DNA from: Trueperaceae bacterium
GTDB lineage: Bacteria; Deinococcota; Deinococci; Deinococcales; Trueperaceae
Reading direction: 5' to 3'
Assembly: GCA_965213705.1 (NCBI GenBank)
Contig: OZ243913.1
Span: 3,040,001-3,104,000, forward strand
DNA length: 64,000 bases
The position numbers and the translations under genes were made by a program. Positions within the stretch are counted from its first letter, which is position 1. Every line of letters starts with the position of its first letter. Shown one piece after another: positions 31,493-53,600 of this stretch. The notes under the pieces were generated by a model that did not search any database, had not been told where the DNA came from, and worked only from the letters and a program-made list of their open reading frames with translations.

Positions 31493-33361
31493 CTACTGAA
31501 TTTTCACCCTGAACTGCACGTAGCCCGATTCACCGAACGACATCTTGTCCTTGTTGCAAACCCCGCCGGGAGTGGTGCCGTTGCCGCCGGTCAGCGTGAC
31601 GCGCAACGTGGTGCGGCCGGAGTTGGGCGCGGTACTGGCCCCGTAGTTCGGGCTGGCAACGTCTAAGTCGATAGGTTGGGCGGCGGCACCCGGACAGGTG
31701 AACTCCAGCTCGCCCGCGCCGTACTGGTTCGTTTGCAACGTCGTGTAAAAAGGCAACGCGTCCGTCAAGGAAATGTCGTAGCTGCTTCCTCCTTGGCTCA
31801 AGTAGGTGACGCGGTACTCGAGGACGTCCCCCGGCAAGCCGGTGTTGTTGGTCCTGAACACGCCGCCGCGCGTGACGTTGCGGACCTCCTTGACGAGTTC
31901 CAAAGCCGCGCGGGGGGTGTCGTCGCTGGCAACGACCGCCGTCGCCGAGGCGTAACTCGCCAGACCGTACACGTGGGTGTCGACGAAGGCCGAGTCGCCG
32001 AACGAAGAGCTGGTAAAGTTGCCCCAGGTGTGCCTGAACGCGCCCGACGCTTGCCCGACGACCGACACCTGCCCCAAAGGGCGCGTGCTGCCGCCGTTCC
32101 CCGCTTTGTTGGGGTTGAAACCGGTTAAGTCGTCCCAGTAGACCGGCACACCGTAGAGGCTTTTGTCGGTGTTGACGCCGTAAATGGTCAAGCCGTTCTG
32201 AGTACCGCCGCCGCTCGTCTCGGCGTCGCTGGCGACGAAGTGATACTCCCCGATGCGGCCCTGGACTTGGGCATGGTAAACGCCGTTCGGAAGTACAGCG
32301 TTGCGGTTGTCACGCCCGTTCCAAACGACCGAATTAACGCCCGCCGCCATCGTGCCGAACAGGTACACGTCGTCCACTTCGCTGCCGTCCACGACGACGC
32401 TGTTGCCGAACACCCCGTCCTGGTTGGCGTCGATGGTGATGAGGTAACGGCCCGGTACGTCGCTCGTAAACTTAAAGACCCCCGAGTCCTGCACCCCCGC
32501 CGAGCTGCCGGGCGAAATGGTCTGGTCGACGCCGCTGTTGTCGGTAAAGGTGATGTCGGAAAGTTGGGGTGCCGAGGTGGGCGGCGGCAGCACGTTCACG
32601 GGATAACCCAAGTAAATCGGATACTTTTCGCTCACGCTGTTGCCCGCCTGCGGCACGCTGTAGATAACGTTGGCGGCGTCCACCCCCTTGTCGTTCGCGA
32701 CAAGGTCGTAGCCGTAGCCTGCAAAGTTGTTGAGGTCGAGCTGCCACACGAAGTTGGTGTTGGGCCGCCCGCCCGGCACGAGGATGTAGTAGTCGGCGTC
32801 GGTCGACTTGTTTTCTGTAAACGCGCCCGCACTGTAAGCCCAGTTGTAAGCAAACACGCGCCCGGCGGCGAGTTTCGGGTTCGGCTTCGTCGCCGTGTTC
32901 GGCGTCACCGTGATGTCGAAGCGGCTGAGAAGGTCTGAGGTGGCGTTGTATAGTCGCAACTGGTAAGTACCGGCAGGCAGACCCGAGGTACTGGGCGACC
33001 ACTTGAAGGCGGTGGGCGGGTCGAGTTCGGTCGGATAGGTCGTCGCCGAAAAGCCGCAGAAACCGGTCTGGGTTTCTTTGAGGGCGTTGGGCGACTTGTA
33101 GTGCAACGTTGCGCCGTTCGCACTCCTGACCTCGAAGTAGACGTTGTCGTTCGAGCTGCTGCCGCGCCCGCACAAAGACACGTTCACGACCTCGGTGGCC
33201 GAGGTGAAAACGACGTATTGAGGGTGGGTAGCGGTCGCGAAGTTGGCCGCCGAAGAGTCGTACTCGTAAAGAGCTTGGGTTAGGCCGACCTGCCATGACC
33301 CTTCGGAAAAAGTGGTAGCACCAAACATAAAGGCCAGCAGACCCAAGCAAACCCGTACCAT
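31493..33361 (-). CDS. Secreted protein with C-terminal truncated DUF11 domain (putative tip adhesin)
   Basis: Hydrophobic N-terminus, beta-rich N-domain, DANQDG loop, WNGRD...LPNGVY (FlgD-like), then LELVKEV...PGDVLEYRV...LTDALP...VQFRVKIQ-stop. Confidence 0.75.
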   Translation of the reverse strand: MVRVCLGLLAFMFGATTFSEGSWQVGLTQALYEYDSSAANFATATHPQYVVFTSATEVVNVSLCGRGSSSNDNVYFEVRSANGATLHYKSPNALKETQTGFCGFSATTYPTELDPPTAFKWSPSTSGLPAGTYQLRLYNATSDLLSRFDITVTPNTATKPNPKLAAGRVFAYNWAYSAGAFTENKSTDADYYILVPGGRPNTNFVWQLDLNNFAGYGYDLVANDKGVDAANVIYSVPQAGNSVSEKYPIYLGYPVNVLPPPTSAPQLSDITFTDNSGVDQTISPGSSAGVQDSGVFKFTSDVPGRYLITIDANQDGVFGNSVVVDGSEVDDVYLFGTMAAGVNSVVWNGRDNRNAVLPNGVYHAQVQGRIGEYHFVASDAETSGGGTQNGLTIYGVNTDKSLYGVPVYWDDLTGFNPNKAGNGGSTRPLGQVSVVGQASGAFRHTWGNFTSSSFGDSAFVDTHVYGLASYASATAVVASDDTPRAALELVKEVRNVTRGGVFRTNNTGLPGDVLEYRVTYLSQGGSSYDISLTDALPFYTTLQTNQYGAGELEFTCPGAAAQPIDLDVASPNYGASTAPNSGRTTLRVTLTGGNGTTPGGVCNKDKMSFGESGYVQFRVKIQ

Positions 33362-36300
33362 TTAGTTGCCACCCCCCGTCGGCGCGGCGCGGCCGCAGGT
33401 CCACTGCTCGTCGAACACCGCGTCGAGCCGCACGAACACGCCGCTGCCGCCGTAAACCGCGCCGTAGTCGCGGTCCAGACCGCCCAGGTTGTAACCCGCC
33501 ACGCCGTAAACGCCGCAACCGAGGCGCTGTGAGACTTCCAGACCGACGCCGAAAGCGCGCTCTTGGACAGTCCAGTCGTTGAAAAGCCGGGCTTGAACCA
33601 GCACGTTGCCGCCCTGCCAAGCGTAAAAGCCGCCACCCACGTTGACGAGGTCTAAGTAGTTCTCCCCGACCAGGTAGCGGTAGGCGTAGCCGAAGCGCAG
33701 GTCGTAGCGCTCGCCGAGCGTCCAAGTCGCTCGAGAGTCGCCCCACACGCTGTCGCCCTGTCCTATACTGCCCCGTCCTGTGCCGCCTCCCCGGGACAGC
33801 GCACCGAACTGGGCTTCGTTGTTCGTGAGCAGGGCGAGGCGTTTGCCCCGGTAAGCGCCCGCGACGCCGAAACTCGCGCCCGAGCCCTGGGCGCTGTCGT
33901 ACAGGTAAGTGCCGGTCACGCTGCCGTAGAGACGGTCCGACAGGGCAAAGGTGCTGCCGCCGACAACGACGTGCTTCGAGGCGGCCGGGTTCCAGGAGAC
34001 TTCATAACGGAGCGCCGCGTCCACTGTGTCGGTGTCGTAGTTCGCGCCGGCGCGCACCGCGACCTGCGTGTCGGTTTGCGCGCCGCCCTGTACGCCGTCC
34101 GCGCTGGACAAGCCGCGGCGGTACTCCGCGCCGAACTGCAGGCTCAGGGTTTCGCTCAGCGGCAACGTCGTGTCCAGACCGAGACGCACCCGCCCGGCCG
34201 CCGCGCTCACCCCGCCCGGAAGTTCGTACTGCGCGGTCACGGTGGTGCTGCCGCCGGACAAGTTGCCGAGTGCGCGCGACGGGTCCGCGCAGTTCAGGGT
34301 GCGGCACAGACTCGCCCGGACGCGGTCGTGTTGCAGGGTCGCCTCGAGCCCCAGCAACAACGCGTTACTGTCGCCCCACACCAGTTCGTCGCTGAGGGTG
34401 AGGCTCAAAAACTCGAGCAGGGGAAAAGCGGCGCTGAACTGGGTAACGCTGCGCGCGTCCGCGCCCAGGCCCTGGCGGTGAACGACGCCCAAGCGGCTCC
34501 CCTGCCAACCGAACAGGTCATAAAGGTTGCCGCCGACCAGTGGACGCAGCAAACCGCCTTCTAAATTCGCCCCGAACTGCAGGTCGAAGCCCTCACCCCG
34601 GTACAGCCCGAGCGCGTCGGCGCTCAAGTCGGTGTTGCCCGCCGTGGCCGACAAACTGGTGCGCGCCGCCACGCTGAAAGCCGAGGAAAACGCGTAGCTT
34701 GCGGCGGCCTCCAACGTGTGGCCTGCCGCTCCCAGCGCGGTCGGCGAGCGGTAACCTGCCGACACGAAGCGCCAACCGGCTTCGGCGTTGAGCGCGTCGG
34801 CGCTGTAGAGCAACCGGGTCGTGACGGCCACGCCGCCGGAACTTTCGCTGACGCCGTACGCGACTTCGGCGTCGGCGCGGACACCGCTACCCTCGTAACT
34901 CGCCCCGCCCGCCACGACGCGGTTGTAGCTGAGGTCGCTGCTCGTTTCCTGCGCCACGCCGAGCCGAAACTTGGCGCCGCCCAGCCCGACCTCGGCCTGC
35001 GCGCCCGCTTGCAAGTAGCGCGCCGCGTTGCCTGCGGCCAAGGTGTAGCTGAGCCGCAAATAGTAGACGTCGCCGCGGGCGTCTACGAGGGGTACGGGCT
35101 TGAAAAGCTCGAGCAGGCCCGTCTCTTCGTTTATCCGGAAGTCCTTCAGGGGCACCAGGACGCGGGTCACCGGGTCGAGGTCGTCCTCGGGCACGCTCAC
35201 GCCGAGGCCGTCTTTTTTGACAACCTCGACGCGCAGCGTGTTGGGCTCAATGGGCGCGTCCGGCACGAAGCGCAGACTTGTCCCGTCGCTTTTCAGGTCG
35301 ACGACGCGCATGTCGGTGACACCGTTGAAGGCCGCGTAAGCGCGCACGCCGAAGTCCACGCCCTCGTGCGCGCCCACATAGACGCCGCTCAGGCCGGTGT
35401 AGAACCGGCCCAGGTCGAGAAAGCCGCTCAGCGGCGTCGTAAAGTCGCCGTACTGAAGGTAACTCTCGTCGCGTTCCAACCGTGCGTAGACCCCTTGGCG
35501 GCTCTCGGCCCCGTAGCTGGCCGCGCCGCTGCTGCCGGGCACGGGAAAAGCTTGATAAGGATTGCTGTCGGCGGGTCCCAAATCGGCAAACGGGTAGCGC
35601 GCCGCCAGGGTCAACAAATAGTCGCCGAGAACGCGGCCTCGAGCGAAAAAGCTGCCGCCCACGCCGAACTCAAACCCCTCACCGTAAGCCGCCCCGACGC
35701 TGCCCGTCCCGCTCACAAGCCAGGGGCGCAAGTTGCTCGTCACCTTTACCGTCTGGCTTTGAAACGTTTCACCCACCAAGACCCTGAGGACGACCTCGGT
35801 GGGTTCGGCGAGGGGCGCGAGCTTTAAGCGCGCGTGGCCGGCCTTCGAGCGAAGCTGAAACCCGACCTCCTCGCTGGCGTCTGCCGAAGCTAGGCCCGCA
35901 CCCTCGACCTCCAGGGTGACGAACCCGTCCAGCGTCGCGTTGCCCCAGGCGTCGGTCACGACGAGGTCCAGCGCGAGCGGCGTGGCCGAGTCGGCGACGA
36001 GCGGCGTCAGGGGCGTGAGGGTAAACCCGGCGGCAGGGCCGGAAAAATAGACGGTGACGCTGTCGCTGACAACCTCGCCGTCCAGGGCGCTCTCGAGCCG
36101 CACCTCGTTCGGGCCGGGCTGCAAGGGCACGCCGACGAAGTCGTAGGTTTGACGGTTCAGGTTGGGGTCGAAGACGCGCTGACCGACGGTGTCAGCGGCG
36201 ACGGGTTCGCCGTTCACCGTAAGGGTCACCTCGCTGTTCAAGGGCGTGTCCGTGCTCACCGTGACGCGGTCGCGCTCGCGCAGCACCAACCCGGGGGCCG

Positions 36301-38383
36301 GCGCCAGGATGACCGCCCCGACACGCTCGCGGGCCACCATGTTCGTCGCCGGACCGCTCTCACTCGCTTCGGCACCATATTCAACACCGAGCGGTTCGGC
36401 GCGGGTGTACAGCTCGAGCGCGTCTTCGCTCCCCAGCAACACTTCGGGCTCGGGCGTAAGACCTACCAGGCTGCTGTGGTCTTTGCCGAGACCCAAAAGA
36501 CCCTCGTGCAACACGGTAAAGCTCACCTGGCCGACCGCCGCCCCCGGCAGTTCGAACACGAGCGCGTCGTCCACGCCCTGCGGGTCGGCTGCCACTCGGC
36601 CGTTGACCGTCGCGCTGCCCGCGACGTAGCTGGCCCCCGCCGGCAACCGCTCGACTAACACCAGGCCGTCCAGCACCGGCAGGTCGTAGGCGGCGACGTC
36701 GACCACCACGGTCGTCGTCTGGTGGGGTTGGGGCAGTTCGGGCAGGGTTTCGACTTTGAACTGCAACAAGCCACTCGAGCCCGCCGGGACACCCTCAAAA
36801 CCTACTGAGTCGCAGTAGGGCGTGACCTCGAGCAAGCCCGTCCCCTCGACCACGCCCCGCACGGTGAGGTTGGCGGTGGCGCTGGCGGCTGCGGGGAGGG
36901 TCAGCGTCCGGGGCGCGTCGACCACCTCCGAACGGCCGCTCCCCTGTACGCCCAAACCGACGGTGACAGGTACGTGGAGCGGGTTGGTGACGGTAAAGTG
37001 AAGCGTCGTTTCCTCGCCTACATAAACCGGGCCGGCTGGGGGCGTCACCTTGGTCGTAAAGTCGGCGCGCATCACGGTGTCCTCGGCGACTCGCTCGAGT
37101 CCCGTTCCGTCCAACACCCCGCGCAAGGTCACCAGGGGCGGCGCGGCGGGCGTGAGGGTGACGGTATAAGAAACCGCGGTCGTCGCCCCCGGCTCCAAAC
37201 TTCCTTGCCACACCAGGTCGTTGCCCGAAACTGTAGCGCCCTCTTGCGCGACGAGTTGCAAGCCCTCGGGCAGCGCTTCGCGCAGCAGGTAGTCCCCGGC
37301 CGCCGCGCCGCCGTTCGTGACGCTCAAGGTGACCGTCAGGGTCTGACAAGGCGCCAGCAGTTCAGAACTCAGGGCACGTGTGAACCCGAGTTTGGGTTGC
37401 GGCGAGACCGAGACCTCAACCTGTGGCAGCTCGACGGGGCGTTTGGGCGTCACGGCGGCGCTTGGAACTGGCAGCGGCAGCGGGCGTTTGGGCGTCACCG
37501 TCACTTCCAGCGTTGGTAACTCGACGGGTTTGAGCGGCGCGACGAGTTGCGCGGCGGGCGTCAGGGTGACGCGCTGCGCCGCGCCGCCGCAGCGCACGAC
37601 GAAGCGCACCGCGTTCGTTTTTTGATACCGCCCCGTGGGCAGCGCGAGTTGCACCGTGTACAGGCCGGGCAAGCGGGGCAGCGCCTGGCTGACCGAAGCG
37701 CGGTCGCCGGACACCGCGAGTTGCAAGGTCACGGGTTGCAGGGTTACGGGTTGCAGGGTTACAGGTTGAAGGGTGCCCGAGGGCAGGCGCAGGCGGGCCG
37801 ACAGTTCGCCACGTCCGTCGCCGTCGTACAGCTCGAGCGCGCAAGCCCGGTGGCCTGCAATGTCGAAACTGAACGCGTCCGTCCAGGCTTCGCTGCTCAC
37901 GTTCACGGTAACGCTTTCGGCTTGCAAAGTCACGTCCGCCAGTTCGGTCTCGAGCTTGAGCAAGTAGACGTTTTTGCCGTTGCCGGCGACCTCGCTCCGC
38001 AAGGTGTAGCTTCCGGCCGCGGCCGGGCCCTCGAAAAAGGTCAGCCACCTAGAAGCGCCCAGACTGAAGCGCTCGCTCCTCAGCGTCGCGACGGTGGCAG
38101 ACCCGCCCCTGGACAGGGTAAAAGCGGCCTCGAGCGGGGCGGCGTCATAATGTTCGTCGCCGGGCTCGTCGAGGTCGATGTTGGGAGAGTAGACCGAGAG
38201 CTTGACCCAGGAGCTTTGCGGTAGGTCGAACACGACTTCGTCGCCGTCGGGTGCCCAGCGTAAAACCGTGCCCGCCGTCACCAGCGGCAGGTGAGTTCCG
38301 GCAGCCTGCGGCGCGTTTTGCGCCCACGCAAACGTGCCGAACAAGCTCAGCAGAAACAGGTACTTCAAGACAAGGTGCTTCAT
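33362..38383 (-). CDS. Large (about 1673 aa) exported protein with Ig/DUF11-like domains and a C-terminal beta-barrel-like region
   Basis: Start MKHLVLK (ATG 38383, ATGA overlap) plus signal peptide; LREALPEG and VERLPAGASYVAGS DUF11-like units; about 780 aa of alternating Gly/Tyr amphipathic strands. Confidence 0.8.
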   Translation of the reverse strand: MKHLVLKYLFLLSLFGTFAWAQNAPQAAGTHLPLVTAGTVLRWAPDGDEVVFDLPQSSWVKLSVYSPNIDLDEPGDEHYDAAPLEAAFTLSRGGSATVATLRSERFSLGASRWLTFFEGPAAAGSYTLRSEVAGNGKNVYLLKLETELADVTLQAESVTVNVSSEAWTDAFSFDIAGHRACALELYDGDGRGELSARLRLPSGTLQPVTLQPVTLQPVTLQLAVSGDRASVSQALPRLPGLYTVQLALPTGRYQKTNAVRFVVRCGGAAQRVTLTPAAQLVAPLKPVELPTLEVTVTPKRPLPLPVPSAAVTPKRPVELPQVEVSVSPQPKLGFTRALSSELLAPCQTLTVTLSVTNGGAAAGDYLLREALPEGLQLVAQEGATVSGNDLVWQGSLEPGATTAVSYTVTLTPAAPPLVTLRGVLDGTGLERVAEDTVMRADFTTKVTPPAGPVYVGEETTLHFTVTNPLHVPVTVGLGVQGSGRSEVVDAPRTLTLPAAASATANLTVRGVVEGTGLLEVTPYCDSVGFEGVPAGSSGLLQFKVETLPELPQPHQTTTVVVDVAAYDLPVLDGLVLVERLPAGASYVAGSATVNGRVAADPQGVDDALVFELPGAAVGQVSFTVLHEGLLGLGKDHSSLVGLTPEPEVLLGSEDALELYTRAEPLGVEYGAEASESGPATNMVARERVGAVILAPAPGLVLRERDRVTVSTDTPLNSEVTLTVNGEPVAADTVGQRVFDPNLNRQTYDFVGVPLQPGPNEVRLESALDGEVVSDSVTVYFSGPAAGFTLTPLTPLVADSATPLALDLVVTDAWGNATLDGFVTLEVEGAGLASADASEEVGFQLRSKAGHARLKLAPLAEPTEVVLRVLVGETFQSQTVKVTSNLRPWLVSGTGSVGAAYGEGFEFGVGGSFFARGRVLGDYLLTLAARYPFADLGPADSNPYQAFPVPGSSGAASYGAESRQGVYARLERDESYLQYGDFTTPLSGFLDLGRFYTGLSGVYVGAHEGVDFGVRAYAAFNGVTDMRVVDLKSDGTSLRFVPDAPIEPNTLRVEVVKKDGLGVSVPEDDLDPVTRVLVPLKDFRINEETGLLELFKPVPLVDARGDVYYLRLSYTLAAGNAARYLQAGAQAEVGLGGAKFRLGVAQETSSDLSYNRVVAGGASYEGSGVRADAEVAYGVSESSGGVAVTTRLLYSADALNAEAGWRFVSAGYRSPTALGAAGHTLEAAASYAFSSAFSVAARTSLSATAGNTDLSADALGLYRGEGFDLQFGANLEGGLLRPLVGGNLYDLFGWQGSRLGVVHRQGLGADARSVTQFSAAFPLLEFLSLTLSDELVWGDSNALLLGLEATLQHDRVRASLCRTLNCADPSRALGNLSGGSTTVTAQYELPGGVSAAAGRVRLGLDTTLPLSETLSLQFGAEYRRGLSSADGVQGGAQTDTQVAVRAGANYDTDTVDAALRYEVSWNPAASKHVVVGGSTFALSDRLYGSVTGTYLYDSAQGSGASFGVAGAYRGKRLALLTNNEAQFGALSRGGGTGRGSIGQGDSVWGDSRATWTLGERYDLRFGYAYRYLVGENYLDLVNVGGGFYAWQGGNVLVQARLFNDWTVQERAFGVGLEVSQRLGCGVYGVAGYNLGGLDRDYGAVYGGSGVFVRLDAVFDEQWTCGRAAPTGGGN

Positions 38384-39684
38384 CGGCGCACGTCCCAACT
38401 TAGTGTGGGCGCGGTGAGCAGCTTTTCGGGCGCGCCTGCAAACGCGACCCGGTAGCTGAGGGTGCGCGCGTAGCCCGCCGGAACGTCGCCGAGGGAGAGT
38501 TCGAGCCCCGCACCCGCCGGGGGTGTGCCGTCCGCGAACACCGGAGCCTCTAGCAAAATCGCTCCGGCGACAAGCGTCTCGCGCACGACCACGCCGCGCA
38601 GGGGTGCGCTCGAGCCGACCTGCAAGGTGACTAAAAATCCACCGGGTACGGGCTCGAGGCTTTTTTCGACCGCGAGCGGCCCCATCGCCACGTTCAACCT
38701 CTGCCGCACCGACAGCTCCGTCCGGGGCGGTTTGAAAGGAATGTCTCGCCGCGTGACGACGCCCGGCAGCAAGCGCACGCGCCACAGCCCCGCCTTGTCC
38801 TCGCCGACGCTCACCCCGAACAGCCGCGCGGGCGTGGTGCTGGTGTCGACCCGTAAGGCGGCCAGCGACGGCTCTACGTTTTGAAAGGTGTAACGCCCGA
38901 GTTCGTCGGTCACGGTTTCGCTGCCGTCGGACAGGTAAAGCCGCAAGTTGGGCACCGGGACGTCGTCAGCATCGTACAGGCCGTTCGCGTCCCGGTCGAC
39001 AAAGGCCGTACCGAGCAGCGCCGCGCGCTGCTCGAACAAACCCAGCTCGACGGGCGTCGTTGCCGTGTCCGCCGCGCCCGCCAGCACCAGGCCCGCACCG
39101 TCTTCGGCCAGGGCCTCGGCCCGGTTGACGAGGTCGGTCGCAAACAGGGCGGTAGGCAGCACGACGGCCTGAAAGGTGACCGTCACGACGTCGTTAGGAG
39201 CCAGGTCTACAAGCGTCCAGCGCAAGGTCGAACCGTCGACCTCGGCTTCCGCAGCGACGGTTGCGCCGTCCGGGCGCAGCACCCGGGCGCTGCCCGGAAC
39301 GTAGCGCAGCGCTGCGGGCAAGGTGTCGACGAGTTGTAACTTGCCGATGGACACGCTCTCGGGGTCGTTGGTGACCTGTAACTCGTAAGTCAGGGTGTCA
39401 CCGACGTTGACACGGCTCGGCACGGCGGTTTTTTGCAGGTCGATGAGGACGGGTTGAAAAGTCGTTACGACCTCGGGCGACAGGTCTTCGCGCTCGTCGC
39501 CGTTCCGCAGGTAGGTCGCGCGCGCCTGGTTGACGATTTTGTTGCCCGTCGGCTCAGCCGTTTGGTTGAAACCGGGCAGTGCGGGCGGGCGGGTCTCCGC
39601 GTCCTGGGCCGCCGCAAGGGTCAAGCCGGCCGACAGCAGGACGGGTAGCAGCGCGAGCAAGCTGCGGGAGACGACGGTGTACAT
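38380..39684 (-). CDS. Secreted DUF11 + SdrD-B-like protein (putative base/adaptor)
   Basis: Signal peptide; IVNQARATY donor-like segment; full DUF11 (LQKT...DTLP...LVNRA); GTAFVDRDANG...TDELGRYTF. Confidence 0.8.
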   Translation of the reverse strand: MYTVVSRSLLALLPVLLSAGLTLAAAQDAETRPPALPGFNQTAEPTGNKIVNQARATYLRNGDEREDLSPEVVTTFQPVLIDLQKTAVPSRVNVGDTLTYELQVTNDPESVSIGKLQLVDTLPAALRYVPGSARVLRPDGATVAAEAEVDGSTLRWTLVDLAPNDVVTVTFQAVVLPTALFATDLVNRAEALAEDGAGLVLAGAADTATTPVELGLFEQRAALLGTAFVDRDANGLYDADDVPVPNLRLYLSDGSETVTDELGRYTFQNVEPSLAALRVDTSTTPARLFGVSVGEDKAGLWRVRLLPGVVTRRDIPFKPPRTELSVRQRLNVAMGPLAVEKSLEPVPGGFLVTLQVGSSAPLRGVVVRETLVAGAILLEAPVFADGTPPAGAGLELSLGDVPAGYARTLSYRVAFAGAPEKLLTAPTLSWDVRR

Positions 39685-39784
39685 GCTGTTACCTTTCTCC
39701 TTCCGGGGCAAACGAATCCGGCAAACAAAGCCTCAAATAGGTGGGTTGAGCGGGTAGTCCAATAGGGGTCACAAGCAAGATAGC

Positions 39785-39811
39785 GGCTCCGTCCCTGACA
39801 GGGACGGAGCC
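39785..39811 (-). terminator. Strong hairpin after the major DUF11 gene (terminator or mRNA stabiliser)
   Basis: Inverted repeat GGCTCCGTCCCTG-A-CAGGGACGGAGCC; only a weak T-tract. Confidence 0.65.
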
Positions 39812-39821
39812 AAAGGCGTCG

Positions 39822-42605
39822 TTATTGCACTCGAACGACGAACACGAGGGTGATGGACTGGCCGGGCGTGAGCACGTCGGCGGTGGTGATGGTTCCGTCT
39901 TTGGTGGCCGGTGCCGTGTCCACACCGACGTAGATGCTCTGCCCGACGGTCAAGCTGGGCGCTGTAGAGGTCCAGGTCGAACCGTTCACCGAGTACAGCA
40001 CGGTACCGCCGGTCGCAGTCGTGGTCGCCGCGGCGGAGGTAAAGGTCGTGTAGCTCGGCAGCGGGTCGGACACCTTGACGTTGGTCAGGTTGCCCGAGCC
40101 GATGTTGGTGGCGACAACGGTGTACTCCAAATAGTCGCCGGGTTTGGCGGTCGCGCCGGAGGCGTCGAGCACTGCGCTAGCAGGACTGCACGTCGCGCTC
40201 GAGCAGGTCCGCACCGTCTTGACGAGCCTGAGTTCGCCCGACCTTACGAGGGTCCTGTCTTGCACGCTGGCCGTGGCCGTCGTGCCGCCCGGATAGGTTG
40301 CCGTCGCGGTCACGGTGACCGTCTCCTCAGCGCCGTCCGCTGCGCTGCCGGGCACGATGACGCGGACGTAAACCGTCCGGGACGCGCCCGCCGCAACGGT
40401 CACGCCGCTCAGCGACGAACTGAAGGTGTTGCCGTCAAGGGAGTACTGGTAGGTGAAAGCCTTGCCCGTCTGTTCCGGGATAGCCACGGTCGCGCTGGCG
40501 TTGCCGTTGTTGGTCAGGGTGTGGGTGTAGGTCACGACGCCGTTGGGCGAGGTGGTGGCGGTCTGGTTGGTGACAAAGGTGAGGGCGGTAACCGTGGTGA
40601 CCGTGACCGTCGTGGTGACGGAGTCAGTTCCGGTGCCGACCGGGTCGGTGGTGCTGGTAGCGGTAAAGGTGAGAGGGTTGTCGCCGGGTACAGCGCTGGC
40701 CGGAACGGTGACCTGGACGACGTAACAGGCTTTGGCACCGACGGCGAGCTGAGGCGTTTGGCTTACCGTGGGGCCGTTCGGGGCACCGGTGGCGCAGTCC
40801 GCTTGCACGAACACCGCGCTCCAACCCGCGGGCAGGTTCGGCACCGTGAGGTTGTAGCTGTCGGCCTGTTTGCCGTCGTTCAACACTTCGACCGGATAAG
40901 AAAGCGTCGTGCCGGGGGTGGTGCTCTGGTTGTCCGGGTTGTCGTTGGCATCGTTACGCGGGGATTCGCCACTAAACCCGCGCGTGGCGAGGTCGACGCT
41001 GTAGCCCTTGACGGGCGTGGGGACAACGTCTTTGGTGGCGTCGGTCGCCCCGCTCGAGGTCGAGGTGGCGGTCAGGGTGACGGTGGTACCCGCCGTGGCG
41101 CCGACCGGAACGGCGACCTTGACGACCACGTCTTGCGAAGCGCCCGGCGCGAGCGGCCCCAAGGTGCCGGACAGCGGGGTGACGCCGTCGGCCGCGTAAA
41201 GCGTCACGCTGTAGCCGTTGGCGCTGCTCGTGGTGGACAAGGTATAAGAACTGGTCGCGTTGCCGTTGTTGAGCACCGTGTGTCTGAAGGCCACGGTGTC
41301 GCCGGTATAGACGGGAACGGTGCTGGGGGCGGTAGCCGTCAGGGTTTGGGTGTCGGTATAGGGTGCGGCGGCGGTGTAACCGCCCGACAGGGTGACGGTC
41401 CAGGTTTTGCCCGTTGCCGGGTCGGTGTAAGTCGCGTTGCCCGACAGGGTGGGGTCGGCCGCTTTACCCGCAGGGCCGACGGCCACCCTGGCGTTTGCGT
41501 TGACCGTCACGCTGGTGGTGTTGGTGGGGGTCGTTTTGTTGGTGGCGGAGGTGGTGCCGGTAGCATAGGTGACGTTGGCGGTGTTGGTCACGGTCGTGTT
41601 GGCCGCCGCACCGGCAGCCACCGTGACGCTGAAGGTCATCGAGTAGTTCGTGCCTTGCGTAAAGAAAGCGCTTTTGGTGGGCGAGGTGGGATCGCGAATC
41701 ACGATACCGACGGCGTTGACGGTGCCCGTGGTGGGTACCGTGGTCGACCAAGTGGTGCCGTTGTTGGTCGAGTAAATAGGCTCAACCGCACCCTTGCCGG
41801 AGGTGCCGGACAGGCTGCCTGCAGTGAAGGTCTGGTTGGTGTTCAACACGTCGGTGACGATGATACCGACGCCCGTGAGACCGTAGCTCGAGAGGTCGAC
41901 GCCGTAAGCCGCCGAGCCGCCGTTGTTCGAACCCGCAACGGTGTAAGTAACGGTACCGCCCGCGGCGACCGTGCTCGTCGGGTTGGCCGTTTTGGTGGCG
42001 GTCAGGTTGCCCGCCGTGTTGACGACGGCCCTGGCCCAGTTGTTGGTGTCGGTGACGGCCGTGTTGCCGGCCGAGGTGCCGGTGATGTTTAGAAGCGCGT
42101 TTTGGTTGTTGGTGGCGGTGCCGGGCAAGGTACCCGCGACAATCAAACAGACTGAGGCATCTGCATTGAGGGTAACGCTTGTTACAACCGGGTCGCCCGC
42201 GACGCTGCCGTCACAACCCGCGTCCCGGTAGATGGTCACGCTGCTCAGGTCGAAATTGTCGGTCGTCGGCTGCACGTTTGCCAGGTTGAAGGTATCACTG
42301 CCGTTGCCGGTGTTGGTCAAAATATAGTTGAAATACACAGGTGCACCCGGCAGCGCGCTTTTGGTTTGGCCCGGCGCGGCTTCGGTGCCGTCGGGCGTGA
42401 TGGTGAGGCTGTAGACTTGCTGCACGATGGTAGTGACCGGGTTAGAGAACGTCGTCTTGGGCGTGCCCCCCGAGACGTAAGTCGCCGAGGCGGTGTTGGT
42501 TATCGGCGTGTCCTTGGGCGTGCCGGCGGCGAAAGCCAAACCGAACACGCTCAAAAAGAGGCCGAACAACGCGGTTCGGCTCGAGCGGTTGAAAGACGGG
42601 GTCAA
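39822..42605 (-). CDS. Thr-rich secreted multi-Ig DUF11 protein, about 927 aa (putative major filament subunit)
   Basis: GGAGG then TTG at 42605 (alternative ATG 42626); signal peptide ending AFA; AGTP..ITNTASATY; four Ig repeats with N-x-G-N-like motifs; one complete DUF11; C-terminal truncated DUF11 ending LVFVVRVQ. Confidence 0.85.
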   Translation of the reverse strand: MTPSFNRSSRTALFGLFLSVFGLAFAAGTPKDTPITNTASATYVSGGTPKTTFSNPVTTIVQQVYSLTITPDGTEAAPGQTKSALPGAPVYFNYILTNTGNGSDTFNLANVQPTTDNFDLSSVTIYRDAGCDGSVAGDPVVTSVTLNADASVCLIVAGTLPGTATNNQNALLNITGTSAGNTAVTDTNNWARAVVNTAGNLTATKTANPTSTVAAGGTVTYTVAGSNNGGSAAYGVDLSSYGLTGVGIIVTDVLNTNQTFTAGSLSGTSGKGAVEPIYSTNNGTTWSTTVPTTGTVNAVGIVIRDPTSPTKSAFFTQGTNYSMTFSVTVAAGAAANTTVTNTANVTYATGTTSATNKTTPTNTTSVTVNANARVAVGPAGKAADPTLSGNATYTDPATGKTWTVTLSGGYTAAAPYTDTQTLTATAPSTVPVYTGDTVAFRHTVLNNGNATSSYTLSTTSSANGYSVTLYAADGVTPLSGTLGPLAPGASQDVVVKVAVPVGATAGTTVTLTATSTSSGATDATKDVVPTPVKGYSVDLATRGFSGESPRNDANDNPDNQSTTPGTTLSYPVEVLNDGKQADSYNLTVPNLPAGWSAVFVQADCATGAPNGPTVSQTPQLAVGAKACYVVQVTVPASAVPGDNPLTFTATSTTDPVGTGTDSVTTTVTVTTVTALTFVTNQTATTSPNGVVTYTHTLTNNGNASATVAIPEQTGKAFTYQYSLDGNTFSSSLSGVTVAAGASRTVYVRVIVPGSAADGAEETVTVTATATYPGGTTATASVQDRTLVRSGELRLVKTVRTCSSATCSPASAVLDASGATAKPGDYLEYTVVATNIGSGNLTNVKVSDPLPSYTTFTSAAATTTATGGTVLYSVNGSTWTSTAPSLTVGQSIYVGVDTAPATKDGTITTADVLTPGQSITLVFVVRVQ

Positions 42606-47424: not shown

Positions 47425-47477
47425 GACGCGGTTCGCGACTGCTTTCTCATGGATTGGATGTTATCTTAACCTTGCGT

Positions 47478-47605
47478 GGGCAGGCGTAGCGCCGACAGGT
47501 GCCACGCCTGCCCTGCCGTTGTAGATAACCTTTGTAGACAACCGTTGTGGACAGCCGTTGTAAGTCGTCGTTGTAGACAGTTGCTGTCAAGAGCCGCTGT
47601 AGAAA
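47478..47605. repeat. Hairpin followed by seven 13-bp tandem units upstream of the TamB-like gene
   Basis: GGGCAGGCGT...ACGCCTGCCC (47478-47513); units near consensus gccgttgtagaca (47515-47605). Confidence 0.8.
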
Positions 47606-47622
47606 GCCGCACAGACCCCCTT

Positions 47623-50600
47623 ATGGACGTTCAAACACCCGCGCCCACCGACCATCCTGGGCCGCCGCGTTTTCTAAAGTGGAGCCTGCCCGTCCTCGTC
47701 GCGGGTTTGCTGCTGGCGTTGTACTTTGCGCCGCAACTGCCCGCGGTGCGAGGGTGGCTGTTGTCGCAAGTTGACAGCGCGGTCCCGGCGGGCTACAGCC
47801 TCGACTACAGCAGCAGCGGCGGCAACCTGTGGAGCGGTATCGAGTTCGGCGGGGCGAACGTGGACGGTCCCGGTTTGGCGGTCGAGGCCGACACGCTCAG
47901 CCTGGGCTACTCTTTGCCCGCGCTGCTCACGGGCAGACTGCCCGTGTCGGTGACGGCCGAAGGTGTCCGCGGCAGGGTCGCGCTCAAAGACCTCACTGTA
48001 GGAGGTTCCGGCAGAGGTTCCAACGCCGCGCCCGTCCGACCCGTGTTGCGCGACCTGAGCCTCAAAGACGTCAACCTCCGGCTTGTCGACGTGCCCTACA
48101 CCCTGCCCGACCTGAACGTGACAAACCTGCAAGCACGGCCCGTAGGCGACGCCTTTCGCGCCGAGGCCACCCTGAAAACGGCCGAGGGCGAGGCCGTCGT
48201 CAACGGCACGCTGGCCCTGAACCCGCTCCGCTTTACCGCCGACGTGCCCCGCCTGGACGCGCGCGTGGCGCGGCAGTGGTGGCGGGGCATTACCGGCGGC
48301 ACCCTGGCCGGCACGGTGAGCTACGCGGACGGCCGCCTGCGCGCCGACGCCAGCCTTCGAGACGGCAGTCTGGACTTTTTGGGCGAGACCGCGTCGGGTA
48401 TTCAGGGCGACGTCGCTTATGAGAACGCCACCGTCCGCGCCGACCTGACCGGCGCCGCCCTGGGCGGCGAGGTGACGGCCGCCGGCAGCGTGGACGTCGC
48501 GGCGCTGCGCTGGTCAGCCGAGGCGGTCGGCACCGTGAACTTGCGCGACGCCGTCCTGTGGCTCGCCGCCGGGCGCGTGCCGGTCGACGTGTCCGACGTA
48601 GGGCTGAGCGGCAGCGCTCAAACCCGGCTGAGCGCTGAGGGCTGGCGCGACTTCACGCTCGACGGCGCGGCCACGGGCGCGGGCGACGTGGCGGGCTACG
48701 CGCTCGAGGATTTACAGGTCGACTACAGTTTTGACAGTGATACAGGCGCCCGCGTCGACGCCACGGCAAACTTGGCCGGGGGCGACGTCACGGCCAGCCT
48801 CACGCCGCAAGCGGACGGCTTCTCGTTCGACTTCGGCGGTGCAGGCGTGCAGCTGTCACCCGCGGTCAGGGCCGACCTAGAAGTCGCCCTGACAAGGTCG
48901 CCGGGCGGCCTCGCCGGCACCACCGAGGCCGCGCTGACGGGCACCCTCCTCGACCAAGCCCTGAACGTGACCTTGGGCGGCGTGTTCAAGCCGGACGTCG
49001 TCCAGGCGAGTGTCGACGGAACCGCGCTCGGCGGGCCGCTCACGGGCGCGGGCTCGCTCCAGGGCGGCGCTGTGGCGGCGCGGCTCGAGCTGCCGGGGGC
49101 GGTCCTGCCCGGCCTGAAACGTCCGGTGGGTCTTGAACTCAGCGCGACCGGCCCCGCCGACGCCCTCCCCCTCACTTTCACCCTCACGACGCCGGAGCCG
49201 ACCGGGCTGGTGCTCGGGCCGCTCACCGTTCCCAAAGACATCGGGGGGCAGGCCAGCGCCACGCTGCGCGGGACGCGCCTCGAGGACCTCAGCGGCCGCT
49301 TCGGCACCTTGACCGTGGCGGGCGACCTGGGCCCGGACGCTTCCGGCAACTTGAGCTACAGCTTGGCGAACACGCCCCTAAGCGGCGTCGTACAGGGTGA
49401 GGCGAGCGTCGACGGCGTGTTGACGCTCGCCGACAGGGTGCTCGAAAGCAAGGCGACGGTGACAAGTTCGGACCTGCGGCTAGCCAACCTGACCTTGCCG
49501 CCGCTCGCCGCCGCCGAGCTTGAAGTCAGGCGTGCCGACACCTGGACGGCGACGCTCACAGCGCCGGACGAAACCTTCAAGCTCGGTTACGGCGGCGGTG
49601 ATGACGGCGGTGACGACGGTGACGCTTTGCGCGTGACCACGGCGGACTATCCGGTCACGGTCGCCGGGCAAGCTCTCACCCTCACGGGAACCGGTAAGCT
49701 GGCGGCGGCGGACCCCTTGGGCTCGCTCGACCTCGCGCTGAACACGCAAACCCCGTTCGGCGACGTGACGCTGACGGGCGGGGCGGCGGCGCTCCGATAC
49801 ACCCTCGAGACCCCGACCCTCGGCCCCGGTTCCCAACTGACGGGCACGGCAAACCTGCTCGAGCGCACCACGAGCTTGAGCGGGCGGCTCGGCGCTTTGG
49901 ACGTTGCCGGGACGGGTCGTTGGGACGACAGCTTGGACGGGACGCTCACCGTCGAGGGCGGCGGCGAAAAACTCGAGCTGCGCGTTCGCGGCCAACCGGC
50001 CCAGCCCAGTTTGGCGCTGACCGGGCGACTGCCGCTGAACCTCGTCGGCGACCTCTTCGGCGTGACAGCGAGCGGCACCGTGAACGCCGACCTGGTGCGC
50101 ACCGGCAGCCTCTATCAAGAAGGTCGTTATCGAGACGGCCGTTATCAAGGGAGCGCCGAGGTGGTGGGCACCCTTGCCTCGGTGCCTGTCGGGTTGCGTT
50201 TTTTAGGCGAGGGCGACACCCTCGGAGTGACGGGCGACGTGACGCCGTTTGCCGTGCCGCTCAGTCTCAGCGGTCGACTGCTTCCCACCATTGAGCTGAA
50301 CGGGGCGAGCGAACTGGGCCGTGTCGCCCTGGTTGAAACCGGCTTGACGGGCGCGGGTACCGTACCCGGCGGGACGTTTGCAGGTTTTACGCTCGAGCCG
50401 CAACCGTGGACGCTGGCAGGCGACTTGGCCGCAGGCACGGCGACGCTGTCGCTGCCCGAAACCGCTTCGAGCGTGAGGGTCGACCGGGGCGCGGCGGGCT
50501 GGCGGGCCACCCTCGACCTCGCCCAAACCCTTGCGCGGGGCGACAGCGCGGTGAGCGTCGAGACGAGCGGCACCTTGGCCGCCGGGTCTGCGGTGCGGGG

Positions 50601-53600
50601 AGAAGTCCGGCTGCAGACGCCCGCGGGCGACGCGACGCTGCCGTTGACGGGGTCTCTGGAGGGGCTCGAGCTGGGCGGCACCCTGCCCGCGCCGGTCGCC
50701 GCAAGCTTGCTCGGGTCACCCGTGGCTGTAACCGGCGACCTGGAGGTTGCGGCTCGGGCGCAGGTTGGCGGCGGGTTGACCTACGCCGCCACAGCCGCCT
50801 GGCAAACGCCCCGCAGCACGCTGACGGCGCAGCTTGACGGCGCCGGCACAAACTTCAATATCACGGCGGCGGGCGGCGGCCTCGACCTCCGTTACGGCCC
50901 CGACGGGTTGAGCGTGCAGGCCGACGGTTTTCAGCTCGAGCCGTTTCTGGGCGCGGCGGGCGTGCAGGGCAGTCTGAACGGCTCTTTGCGGCGCACGCTC
51001 ACGTTGAACGAAACCGGGGCGGGTTGGGACGGGGTGCTCACCTTGGACACGCGTGCGCCCGTTGCGCTCCAAGCAGTGCTCAGCGGCGCGGGTGAACGGC
51101 TCGAGCTGTCCACCGACTACGACGCGGACGCCCTGAACGCCCGAGCCGTAGGTACGCTCCTGCCCACGCTCGACCTCGCGCTGAGCGGCGCGTTCCGCGA
51201 CTTGGCGACGCTCCAGGGGCGGGTTGGCGGCACCCTCACCCGGCCCGCCGTGGCCGCCACACTGACGACGAAACCGCTGGACGTTCAGGGGGGCCTCGAG
51301 CTGAGCGTTCCCGCTCAAACCCTGACGCTCACGGCCGACTTCGGAAACGGCTTGAACGCGCCCGGTTTGAACGCGACCGGCCTAAACGCGACGCTGCAGG
51401 GTGACGCGCTCGAGCTTGAACTTTCCGAAGGCGGTTTGCAAGGCGCGCTCAGGCTGCCCTTCACCTTGGCGGGCGCAGAGGAAGTGTTGAGCGCGGAAGT
51501 CGGCGGCACCCTCAGTCGTCCGAGCTTGGACGGCACCTTGGTGGGCAACGTCGCCAGCGGCCCGGTCAGGGTCGCCGACGGCCGCTTGACGACGACCCTG
51601 AACCTCAGGCCTTCACCCTTACTGGGCGGCCTGCCGCTCGACGCGCCCGCGCTCACGGTGGCGTTCACGGGGGCGTTCGAGGGCGCGCGTGACCTGGCTT
51701 GGCAGGCGCAGGTCGAAGGTTCGGCCCAGTTCCAGGGTCTGCCGCTGGCGCTGGGCGGCACGCTTTCGGGTGAGGGCGCAAGCTACCGCGGAACCGTGAG
51801 CGCGACCCTCGCCGGGGAGAGCGTGCCGCTCACCGTGGCTGGGCAAGGTAGCGCGGTGCAGGTGCAAGCGAACCTCGAGGCTTTCAGCTTGGCGAGCTTG
51901 GCACCCGCCCTGCCCGTTCCCGTGACCGGGACGCTCGGCGGCACCCTCGACCTCGACACGCGCGCCCCACAACTCCTGTCGTTCGACCTCACAGCTTCGG
52001 GAGCGGTGCGGGGCCGCGGGTTCGACCTTACGGCCGAACGTACGGAAGGTGAACTGAGCGTCACAGGCGACGTTGCGGGCGCACCCTTCACGCTCGGTGA
52101 CGAAACGGGCGCTTACTCGTTCACCCTCGGCTCGAGTACGGACCTCTCGAGTTTGGCGGGACGGCTCGAGCTTGCCCCCGCGCTCCGTTTAGACGTCTCA
52201 GGACAGTATCTTGCGCAACCCCTCACGGCGACGGCGGCTTACGCGACTTCGGACGCAAGCTCTGGTACGGTGACCCCCGACACGGCGACCCCTGACACAG
52301 CAACCTGGGCGGCGGCGGTCGGCGACGCGACCGTTTCGGGCGACGCCAGGCGGGTCGGCGGCGTTTGGACGTTGCAAAGCGTCGTGAACAGTCCGGCCGA
52401 CGGCGTTTTGCCCTTCCAGGGGCGAGCCGAGGTCGCGGCGCGGGTCGAGGGCGGCAACGTCACCTTGGACACGCTCACGGCGAACACGGCGCTCGGCGGG
52501 CGCGCGGTCGGGCTCGAGCTGTCCGGCCCCGCCTGGCCCGCGCCCGAGCTGACGGGCGGGCTGGAGGTCGCCGGTTTCGGGCGCGGCGACCTCACCTTGA
52601 GCGGCGCCGCGCCCGGTTACGACGTCGCCCTGAACTACGACGGGCTCGTGTTAGCCGCCGCACTCACTCCGGGGTTGGCCGTTGAGACCGTCACGCTCGG
52701 CGGTGCGGGCACCTTGCCCGTCGGCGGGGGCGTCCCCCTGACCTCCGACTTGACCTGGACGGCGGCGGGCTTCAGCGGCAAGGCCGGCGCCGACCTCTCG
52801 TTCGGCAACCTCAGCGCCAACCTGACCGCCGTCGGCACCGGCCCGCTCGGGGTGGCGGGGCGCGCGACGTACCGGGGCCGGGGCGAAAGTCAGGAGGTGG
52901 CGCGGCTCGAGCTGGCCCTTTCCGCCAACCCCTTCGCCCGGCCCGGTCTGAACGGCCACCTCGCCTTGCAGGGTGACGTTGGACGGTTTCTACCCGCTTA
53001 CCGAACCCTCACCGCGACGCCGACGACCCTCACTGGACGGCTCGACGTTTCGGGCGAGGTGACGCGGCCGCGCCTCAGCGGCCCCGTGACCCTGCAGGGC
53101 GCGCTCGCTGCGGCGGGAGCGTTCGTTTGGGACGGGGCTGTCGGGCGGCTCGAGCTGTCCGGGGACGGTCTGGACGCGACCGCGGCGCTCCGCGCGAGCG
53201 GCTGGAGCGTCGCGGCGCGGGCCGACGGCCTCGACCTCACACCTCTCCTGCCCCAACTCGACGCACCCCGGCTCGGCGCGACGGTCACCGGCTCCGGCAG
53301 CTGGGGCGAGCCCGTCCTGCAAGTCGACGGCCTCACCCTGCAAACGCCGAACGGCTCGCTTGCCGGCGACTTGACCTACGACGGGGCGTTGAGCGGGCGG
53401 CTCGAGACCGACCTCGCCCTCGGCGACCTGAACCTCGGCCCGGCGCTCCGGGGACGCCTGACGGGCGACCTCTTGCTAACCGGCGATTCGGGCGGCTCCG
53501 ACCTCACCGGGACGTTGCAAGCGGTCTCGCTCGGGCTTGACGAGCAACCCGCCGTGCTTGACGGGCAAAGCGCCGGGCTTGACGGCACTTTGGTGGTGAG

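Follow-up and report, generated by a model that had tools for sequence, protein, structure and literature searches.

A split CLIPPER (DUF11) domain at the two ends of a Trueperaceae shaft protein and its candidate role in a self-linked surface fibre

The window analyzed here is the whole 64,000-nucleotide stretch (positions 3,040,001 to 3,104,000) of contig OZ243913.1 from a Trueperaceae bacterium (assembly GCA_965213705.1). On its minus strand, five abutting genes encode, in order, a small protein, a major (shaft) subunit, a donor-only protein, a barrel protein, and an acceptor-only protein (Table 1). The shaft protein carries the two parts of one CLIPPER (DUF11) domain at its opposite ends, and our analysis confirmed that this split is real and beyond chance. 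We consider it probable that the operon encodes a pilus-like surface fibre of diderm cells, in which donor-strand complementation in the split domain is combined with an autocatalytic intermolecular Lys-Asn isopeptide. The assignment of the halves, the invariance of the triad, the fold, and the barrel come from sequences and models, and from these we infer the bond, the polymer, and the export of the fibre.

Table 1. Features of the operon (window positions; strand as read in the window)
Feature	Position	Strand	Description
Small secreted acceptor-fold protein, 195 aa	42629..43216	-	CLIPPER head without the two tail strands and without donor; other residues at the Lys and Asp positions (Phe57, Gly108 region)
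Major (shaft) subunit, 934 aa	39822..42626	-	Residues 1-33 signal peptide, followed by the donor tail, five whole domains of which one is a CLIPPER, and the C-terminal acceptor
N-terminal donor of shaft	42414..42527	-	The two final strands of a CLIPPER domain, with Asn44 (42495-42497)
Complete internal CLIPPER domain of shaft	41496..42014	-	Lys212/Asp259/Asn348, from 9IFR alignment and triad count; intramolecular isopeptide predicted
C-terminal acceptor of shaft	39825..40241	-	CLIPPER head without the last two strands; Lys803, Asp854
Stable RNA hairpin	39784..39812	-	Directly past the major-gene stop; -27.3 kcal/mol, z -5.9
Donor-only protein (proposed anchor/terminator), 434 aa	38380..39684	-	Donor Asn52 (39529-39531), complete CLIPPER Lys85/Asp120/Asn187, SdrD-B-like domain, no C-terminal acceptor
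Barrel protein, 1673 aa	33362..38383	-	Own signal peptide; C-terminal ~795 aa (33392-35776) modelled as outer-membrane beta-barrel
Acceptor-only protein, 622 aa	31493..33361	-	Variable N-terminal part; split CLIPPER Lys491 (31889-31891), Asp534 (31760-31762); no donor

The split domain of the shaft protein

The original prediction placed the shaft gene at 39822..42605. Its 3' end was retained, but the start is more likely ATG 42626 than TTG 42605; a 95% identical homologue (P0002) begins at the same Met. The codons proposed for the joint were found as described, namely AAC at 42495-42497 (Asn44) and AAG at 40218-40220 (Lys803), with Asp854 (codon 40065-40067) as the Asp in the VSDPLP motif. 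The signal peptide ends at Ala33 with an Ala-x-Ala signal lacking a lipobox Cys, and the N-terminal donor segment with Asn44 comes next. The C-terminal domain matched PF01345 (49.1 bits, cut-off 24.6) and TIGR01451 (43.2 bits, cut-off 24). The internal domain holds the CLIPPER/DUF11 triad within one domain, whereas the terminal domain does not, its Asn lying on the N-terminal segment.

The original prediction had started from a resemblance between the N-terminal segment and the tail of the internal complete domain. This resemblance was not significant in a single-sequence BLAST (E 34) but was recovered by profiles. A 170-position hidden Markov model (HMM) built from the complete internal domain was run against segments of the shaft. 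The C-terminal domain covers HMM positions 11-131 (median; independent E-value <0.01 in 108/120 matches) and the N-terminal segment covers positions 131-170 (<0.01 in 109/113), compared with 0/40 for domain 1 and 13/98 for the middle region as control segments. The hhalign values for the two halves were 96% and 99%; the N-tail aligned to the internal tail at 96% (E 2.7e-9) with Asn44 on Asn348. The hhalign match of the acceptor begins after the Lys strand, and the equivalence of the Lys was taken from the motif, the 9IFR alignment of a domain in a neighbouring gene, and the contacts in the complex model described below. The last domain stops where its tail should begin, as had been claimed: the profile breaks at position 131, and 121/121 alignment rows end 0-2 residues past the column of Gln934. 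The chain has no residues past the last strand of the acceptor, and thus no C-terminal sorting signal. Placed one after the other, the C-terminal part and the 38 residues that open the mature protein cover the complete-domain profile, in accordance with the proposal that they make up one domain.

Of 8000 candidates scored in a homologue search, 143 proteins reached E<=0.001, and 120 of these, with named members from Meiothermus, Thermus, Oceanithermus, Deinococcus, Acinetobacter, Moraxella, and Ramlibacter, were used in the alignment. Asn44 is present in 112/112 ungapped rows (8/120 are gapped there), Lys803 in 120/120, and Asp854 in 119/119; the three residues represent 3 of the 14 invariant columns among 725 well-filled ones. 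This invariance agrees with their assignment as the working triad. A pooled alignment has 232 rows, 212 of them distinct, at 29-96% identity (rows missing either end were dropped). There, the split triad is complete in 232/232 and the internal triad in 225/232, being altered in 7; the locus-derived rows were picked by a pattern including the Asn, and thus its count here is partly circular.

Fold and complex model of the joint

The AlphaFold2 (AF2) model of the shaft (109 sequences) is an all-beta chain with a mean predicted local distance difference test score (pLDDT) of 92 and a predicted template modelling score (pTM) of 0.46, in which the strands of the N-tail mirror those of the internal tail. 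VIA-align superposed the modelled internal domain on PDB 9IFR (Z 12.5, root-mean-square deviation (rmsd) 2.4 Å, 122/123 residues), and the triad is in register with the 9IFR motifs. The pilin D2 domains of BcpA, SpaD, and RrgB also aligned and are the nearest solved folds (Z 11.4-13.7). The solved structure 9IFR contains a Lys-Asn bond with a nearby Asp in a DUF11/CLIPPER domain (PMC12617251), so that a DUF11-type domain can indeed form the bond on which the original prediction relied. A Foldseek search with the whole shaft model returned generic immunoglobulin (Ig) chains only, and among PDB sequences nothing relevant was found for the shaft (sequence or profile), the small protein, or the profile of the barrel.

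We modelled the complex of the acceptor (mature residues 760-901) with the donor (mature residues 1-40). The model gave an interface score (ipSAE) of 0.83, compared with 0.00 for the best of three controls; the calibration mark, reached by 116/157 solved pairs and 2/215 mismatched pairs, is rough here as we used our own alignments. The runs agree in 100% of the contacts, with a partner pLDDT of at least 85. Lys803, Asp854, and Asn44 (mature 770, 821, and 11) all lie inside the confident interface, and Lys803 and Asp854 both contact Ala46, two residues from Asn44. In terms of contacts rather than distances, the model docks the two halves as predicted.

The four non-CLIPPER domains of the shaft (window 40242-42413, minus strand) display near-invariant motifs of the N-x-G-N-x-x-D type, which include Asn105, Asn108, Asp111, Asp135, Asn453, Asn583, Asn706, and Asn709. 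Our guess is that these are possibly calcium sites stiffening the rod.

Operon partners and the proposed assembly

We compared 101 loci including the window: 20 same-phylum loci of 20 kb and the best 80 of 354 confirmed loci, which were obtained by scanning genomes with an alignment of 16 distant homologues. The 20 were chosen from the strongest matches (178/201 genomes gave some match, often a weak or partial one); the scan loci came from Acidobacteriota, Pseudomonadota, Eisenbacteria, Nitrospirota, Geobacteraceae, Verrucomicrobiota, Gracilimonas, Abditibacterium, and others. The locus counts are tallies and not statistics, because kin are not independent. Shafts with both ends, picked by profile scores in 95 of the 101 loci, carry the Lys in 94/95 and the Asp in 95/95. 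The complete last (tip) genes (n=52) retain Lys in 51/52 and Asp in 51/52, have a donor in 0/52, and end 0-1 residue past the same strand. In the gene after the shaft, a donor was found in 86/93 loci, with the Asn in 81/86, and a C-terminal acceptor in 0/82 complete ones; for this search, a strict regular expression (61/93) was replaced by an iterated profile, and three of the seven misses were other-frame picks at loci where a donor-bearing open reading frame is present (L046, L069, and L086). The small upstream gene, present in 84 loci, has a donor in 0/84 and the catalytic Asp in 0/84 (Leu, Ile, Val, or Met in 80), with Arg in the Lys column in 47/84, while the fold residues (Pro, Tyr/Trp, Asn, and Pro) are retained. 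The small protein of the window matched DUF11 with E 1.5e-4 and the acceptor profile with 40 bits, and reached TIGR04090 below threshold only (15.7 vs 60 bits). In Thermus thermophilus HB8, five genes on pTT27 (TTH_RS10905 to TTH_RS10925, namely TTH_RS10905, 10910, 11750, 10920, and 10925) carry the same halves and residues.

We propose that the acceptor-only protein is a tip adhesin and the donor-only protein an anchor or terminator, and the small Asp-less acceptor is likely a reversible cap or chaperone for the donor tails. A tip with an acceptor only, a shaft with both halves, an anchor with a donor only, and an unreactive cap are the components required for a covalent chain that is polar and terminated. 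These neighbours, which the original prediction had not used, support its view that subunit n joins subunit n+1. A shaft that closes on itself as a covalent ring for stability, without polymerizing, could also explain the two halves on one chain, and the N-tail is confidently placed in the AF2 monomer (pLDDT 91-96), which probably reflects modelled ring closure and leaves the choice between inter- and intramolecular pairing undecided. We regard the ring as very improbable, since the donor-only and acceptor-only partners in the operon would then have no role; moreover, the linkers between the shaft domains are about 5 residues long (DSSP of the AF2 model) and the monomer pTM is low, as given above.

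The barrel region (33392-35776; AF2 on 70 sequences) was modelled with a pLDDT of 85.7 and a pTM of 0.80, and shows about 39-40 long strands, as counted from DSSP, and a plug-like inserted region near residues 162-246. A fold search returned only other outer-membrane barrels with a poor global fit (LptD, template modelling (TM) score 0.19; FimD, TM 0.27, rmsd 25 Å). A second search gave porins at Z <=13.9 on partial alignments (rmsd 4-21 Å) and FimD at Z 11.8 (rmsd 10.5 Å), and the ESM Atlas gave clusters labelled no further than 'outer membrane protein'. The one barrel protein scanned against NCBIfam matched no barrel family. The candidate that the barrel is a PapC/FimD usher was rejected, as there was no usher Pfam match on the barrel proteins scanned, no usher among PDB sequences searched with the barrel profile, and no good structural match; the usher has 24 strands, as opposed to about 40 here. 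The barrel region was found in 84/101 loci, many of the others being cut by contig ends, and it is fused behind the donor in 63/63 barrel-bearing loci outside Deinococcota and in 2/20 within. On the basis of this synteny and fusion, the barrel is proposed to be the assembly and export platform of the fibre. One of ten scanned proteins (L101) has a C-terminal OmpA domain, and at L067:2-3895 the operon is preceded by another barrel gene.

In the mechanism that we envisage, all five proteins would be exported by Sec, and the small Asp-less acceptor would reversibly bind the two free donor strands of an incoming shaft, preventing ring closure and premature chaining. At the barrel, the donor would complete the acceptor of the previous subunit, the first of which would be the acceptor-only tip. 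Asp854 in the re-formed core would then catalyze the bond between Lys803 and Asn44 of the next subunit, with loss of NH3. The chain of six-domain repeats would end once the anchor donor is captured, which would attach the fibre to the outer membrane; in most phyla the terminating donor would be the N-terminus of the barrel protein itself. The fibre would likely serve as a stalk for adhesion or biofilms that withstands heat, force, and proteases and displays a variable tip. The absence of a sortase was also borne out: PF04203 was not found in the 98%-complete genome, and the shaft has no C-terminal sorting motif.

Several points weigh against this mechanism. Covariation between the N-tail and the acceptor (mutual information with average product correction) showed no enrichment (5 of the top 30 pairs), but was uninformative at an effective sequence number of 66. 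The complex model yields contacts and not atomic Lys-Asn-Asp distances, and it may owe its pass to likeness to solved CnaA/CLIPPER domains such as 9IFR. The Lys is kept in 21/84 of the small proteins. The anchor and the barrel are separate genes in this genome, and the mechanism offers no link between them. The literature searched contained no experiment on any member and showed no bond, ladder, or filament. The bond is absent from some DUF11 domains (PMC12617251). This last point, together with the missing side-chain geometry in the complex model and the SDS-stable oligomers still formed by a bond-less BsaA mutant (10.1101/2024.11.04.621531), would suit a fibre of the same donor-strand architecture that is held non-covalently or is partly cross-linked, the triad being kept for packing or specificity. 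We consider such a fibre unlikely. The Asp is kept where a permanent joint is expected (in all shafts and all but one of the tips counted above), the triad matches the 9IFR motifs in register, and the small acceptor keeps its fold while lacking the Asp, which argues that the Asp is not needed for the fold.

A hairpin with z<-3 (mononucleotide shuffles) follows 58/94 major genes, compared with 1/84 small genes and 3/52 tip genes. It likely raises the level of the major-subunit mRNA over that of the downstream genes, which fits a subunit made in excess. A promoter and terminator scan gave no informative site on the operon strand. The hairpin bears on whether the assembly is long. Each shaft is already a six-domain stalk, the anchor donor competes with shaft donors and could end growth early, and a filament of this system is undescribed; the product could accordingly be a short, fixed assembly of a tip, one or a few shafts, and an anchor, acting as a fibrillar adhesin exported in pieces or as a periplasm-spanning tether. 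We give this possibility little weight, because the shaft alone carries both halves and a strong hairpin follows its gene only, and the N-terminal part of the tip varies like that of an adhesin. The tip proteins are diverse in this part: before the shared acceptor they contain glycine-rich, beta-helix, DUF3344, tandem DUF11, or FlgD-Ig parts (last genes of L112, L059, L039, and L138, and window 31493-33361).

Relation to known systems and further loci

Literature searches (DUF11/CLIPPER, intermolecular isopeptide, sortase-independent Gram-negative pilus, and split CnaA) found no description of this system, although subscription papers were mostly beyond reach and the supplement of PMC12617251 could mention split domains; the word 'donor' is absent from the main text of that paper. 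Its CLIPPER/DUF11 domain shares the fold and the Lys...Asp...Asn triad with the domain described here; there, the whole domain is repeated in one long adhesin with an intramolecular bond, whereas here it is cut between proteins. The principle of a donor strand with a self-made isopeptide is not unprecedented. In the BsaA fibres of Clostridium perfringens, an N-terminal donor with Asn and an acceptor with Lys and a catalytic acid form an enzyme-free intermolecular isopeptide, and triad mutants lose oligomers (10.1101/2024.11.04.621531). In contrast to our system, BsaA is a TasA-family subunit of a monoderm with a Glu catalyst and a SipW signal peptidase, and, as far as the accessible text goes, has no barrel of this type, tip, or cap. 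No TasA/BsaA family with an N-E-K triad was found on the shaft, where the catalyst is Asp, and no SipW was found among the five operon genes and two flanking genes scanned. The archaeal thread of Sulfolobus acidocaldarius (PMC9715654) is likewise a donor-strand filament with a proposed self-made intermolecular isopeptide; it differs in that the bond joins the N-terminal amine to Asn, from n to n+2, and in having another subunit and, in the part available, no barrel.

Chaperone-usher pili (Fim/Pap; PMC11821415) follow the same logic of a tip, a shaft, a chain stopper, a small helper, and an outer-membrane barrel. They are non-covalent and consist of single-domain pilins with one donor strand, and their chaperone is a strand donor, unlike the small protein of this operon, a DUF11-type acceptor that lacks a donor (see above). 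Profiles and the complex model predict an N-terminal donor that completes the incomplete Ig fold of a neighbour, with two strands and not one. No usher or chaperone Pfam match was found on the proteins scanned. The sortase pili (BcpA, SpaD, and RrgB) resemble the proposed fibre in their covalent head-to-tail multi-domain shafts with CnaA-type D2 domains and Lys-Asn bonds; their inter-subunit bond is made by a sortase from a C-terminal sorting motif, neither of which was found here. Type V pili are built from a lipoprotein precursor with a protease-triggered C-terminal donor strand, and this class was rejected on account of the N-terminal donor and the Ala-x-Ala signal without a lipobox Cys. 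TLP-1 (PMC11494351), tafi (PMC11821415), and Litorilinea GhlA with its 49 whole DUF11 domains (10.1101/2025.08.19.671072) were also rejected as the same system, as judged from the accessible parts of these sources, and in that of PMC8779699 a DUF11 protein appears in a table only.

Covalent inter-subunit pili are usually tied to the sortases of monoderms. Donor-strand assembly and self-made isopeptides are each known as principles, but neither the parts nor the machine match any pilus family tested. The split-domain system is real, conserved, and widespread; its proposed chemistry has precedent, and its machine has none in the papers searched. We lean, with little more than even confidence, toward an undescribed pilus class over many diderm phyla, with its own plugged export barrel of ~40 strands and no close relative of known structure, an inverted chaperone that caps donors rather than acceptors, and enzyme-free covalent joints from the tip to an outer-membrane protein. 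Such a class would constitute one continuous covalent chain and a natural Tag/Catcher family including thermophilic pairs. If so, many genes annotated as 'DUF11 domain-containing' or 'hypothetical' in Deinococcota, Pseudomonadota, Acidobacteriota, Verrucomicrobiota, Nitrospirota, and others would encode a covalent pilus in Gram-negative-type cells, the barrel would be a candidate secretion barrel larger than ushers, and the joints would be a precedent in nature for SpyTag/SpyCatcher-like ligation and a diverse supply of parts for it. The presence of the system in T. thermophilus HB8 makes it directly testable there.

The complete CLIPPER is also matched in fold by PDB 7WRK, the hypothetical protein TTHA1873 of T. 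thermophilus (Z 11.5, rmsd 2.8 Å, 130 aligned). TTHA1873 was rejected as a cap because the sequence and profile searches with the small protein missed it. A second, orphan small Asp-less acceptor lies at G000:C1:3358440-3359840 on the minus strand of the same genome, its gene occupying the 3' part of a stop-to-stop frame; it has a signal peptide, and no other operon gene was detected beside it. The other DUF11 genes of this genome showed no donor by the donor profiles used. Among them, a run of related lipoprotein-like genes at G000:C1:3654197-3663591 (plus strand) includes three with DUF11 matches and leucine-rich-looking ends, with no donor or barrel by profiles, and a secreted 791-residue frame with three DUF11 matches at G000:C1:264941-267313 (plus strand) is not linked to the operon. 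At the end of the anchor (window 38380-38700, minus strand) there is a degenerate CLIPPER-like domain (Lys341, Glu369), and the HB8 anchor ends alike. Many genomes of the largest genus contain several further genes of ~950 aa that match only the first 500-650 profile positions, donor included (e.g. G004:C4:1517155-1518906); these may be extra anchors or alternative subunits. Elsewhere in the window, a 3483-aa open reading frame (47476-57927, plus strand) looks, to the eye, similar to TamB/AsmA-like envelope proteins.

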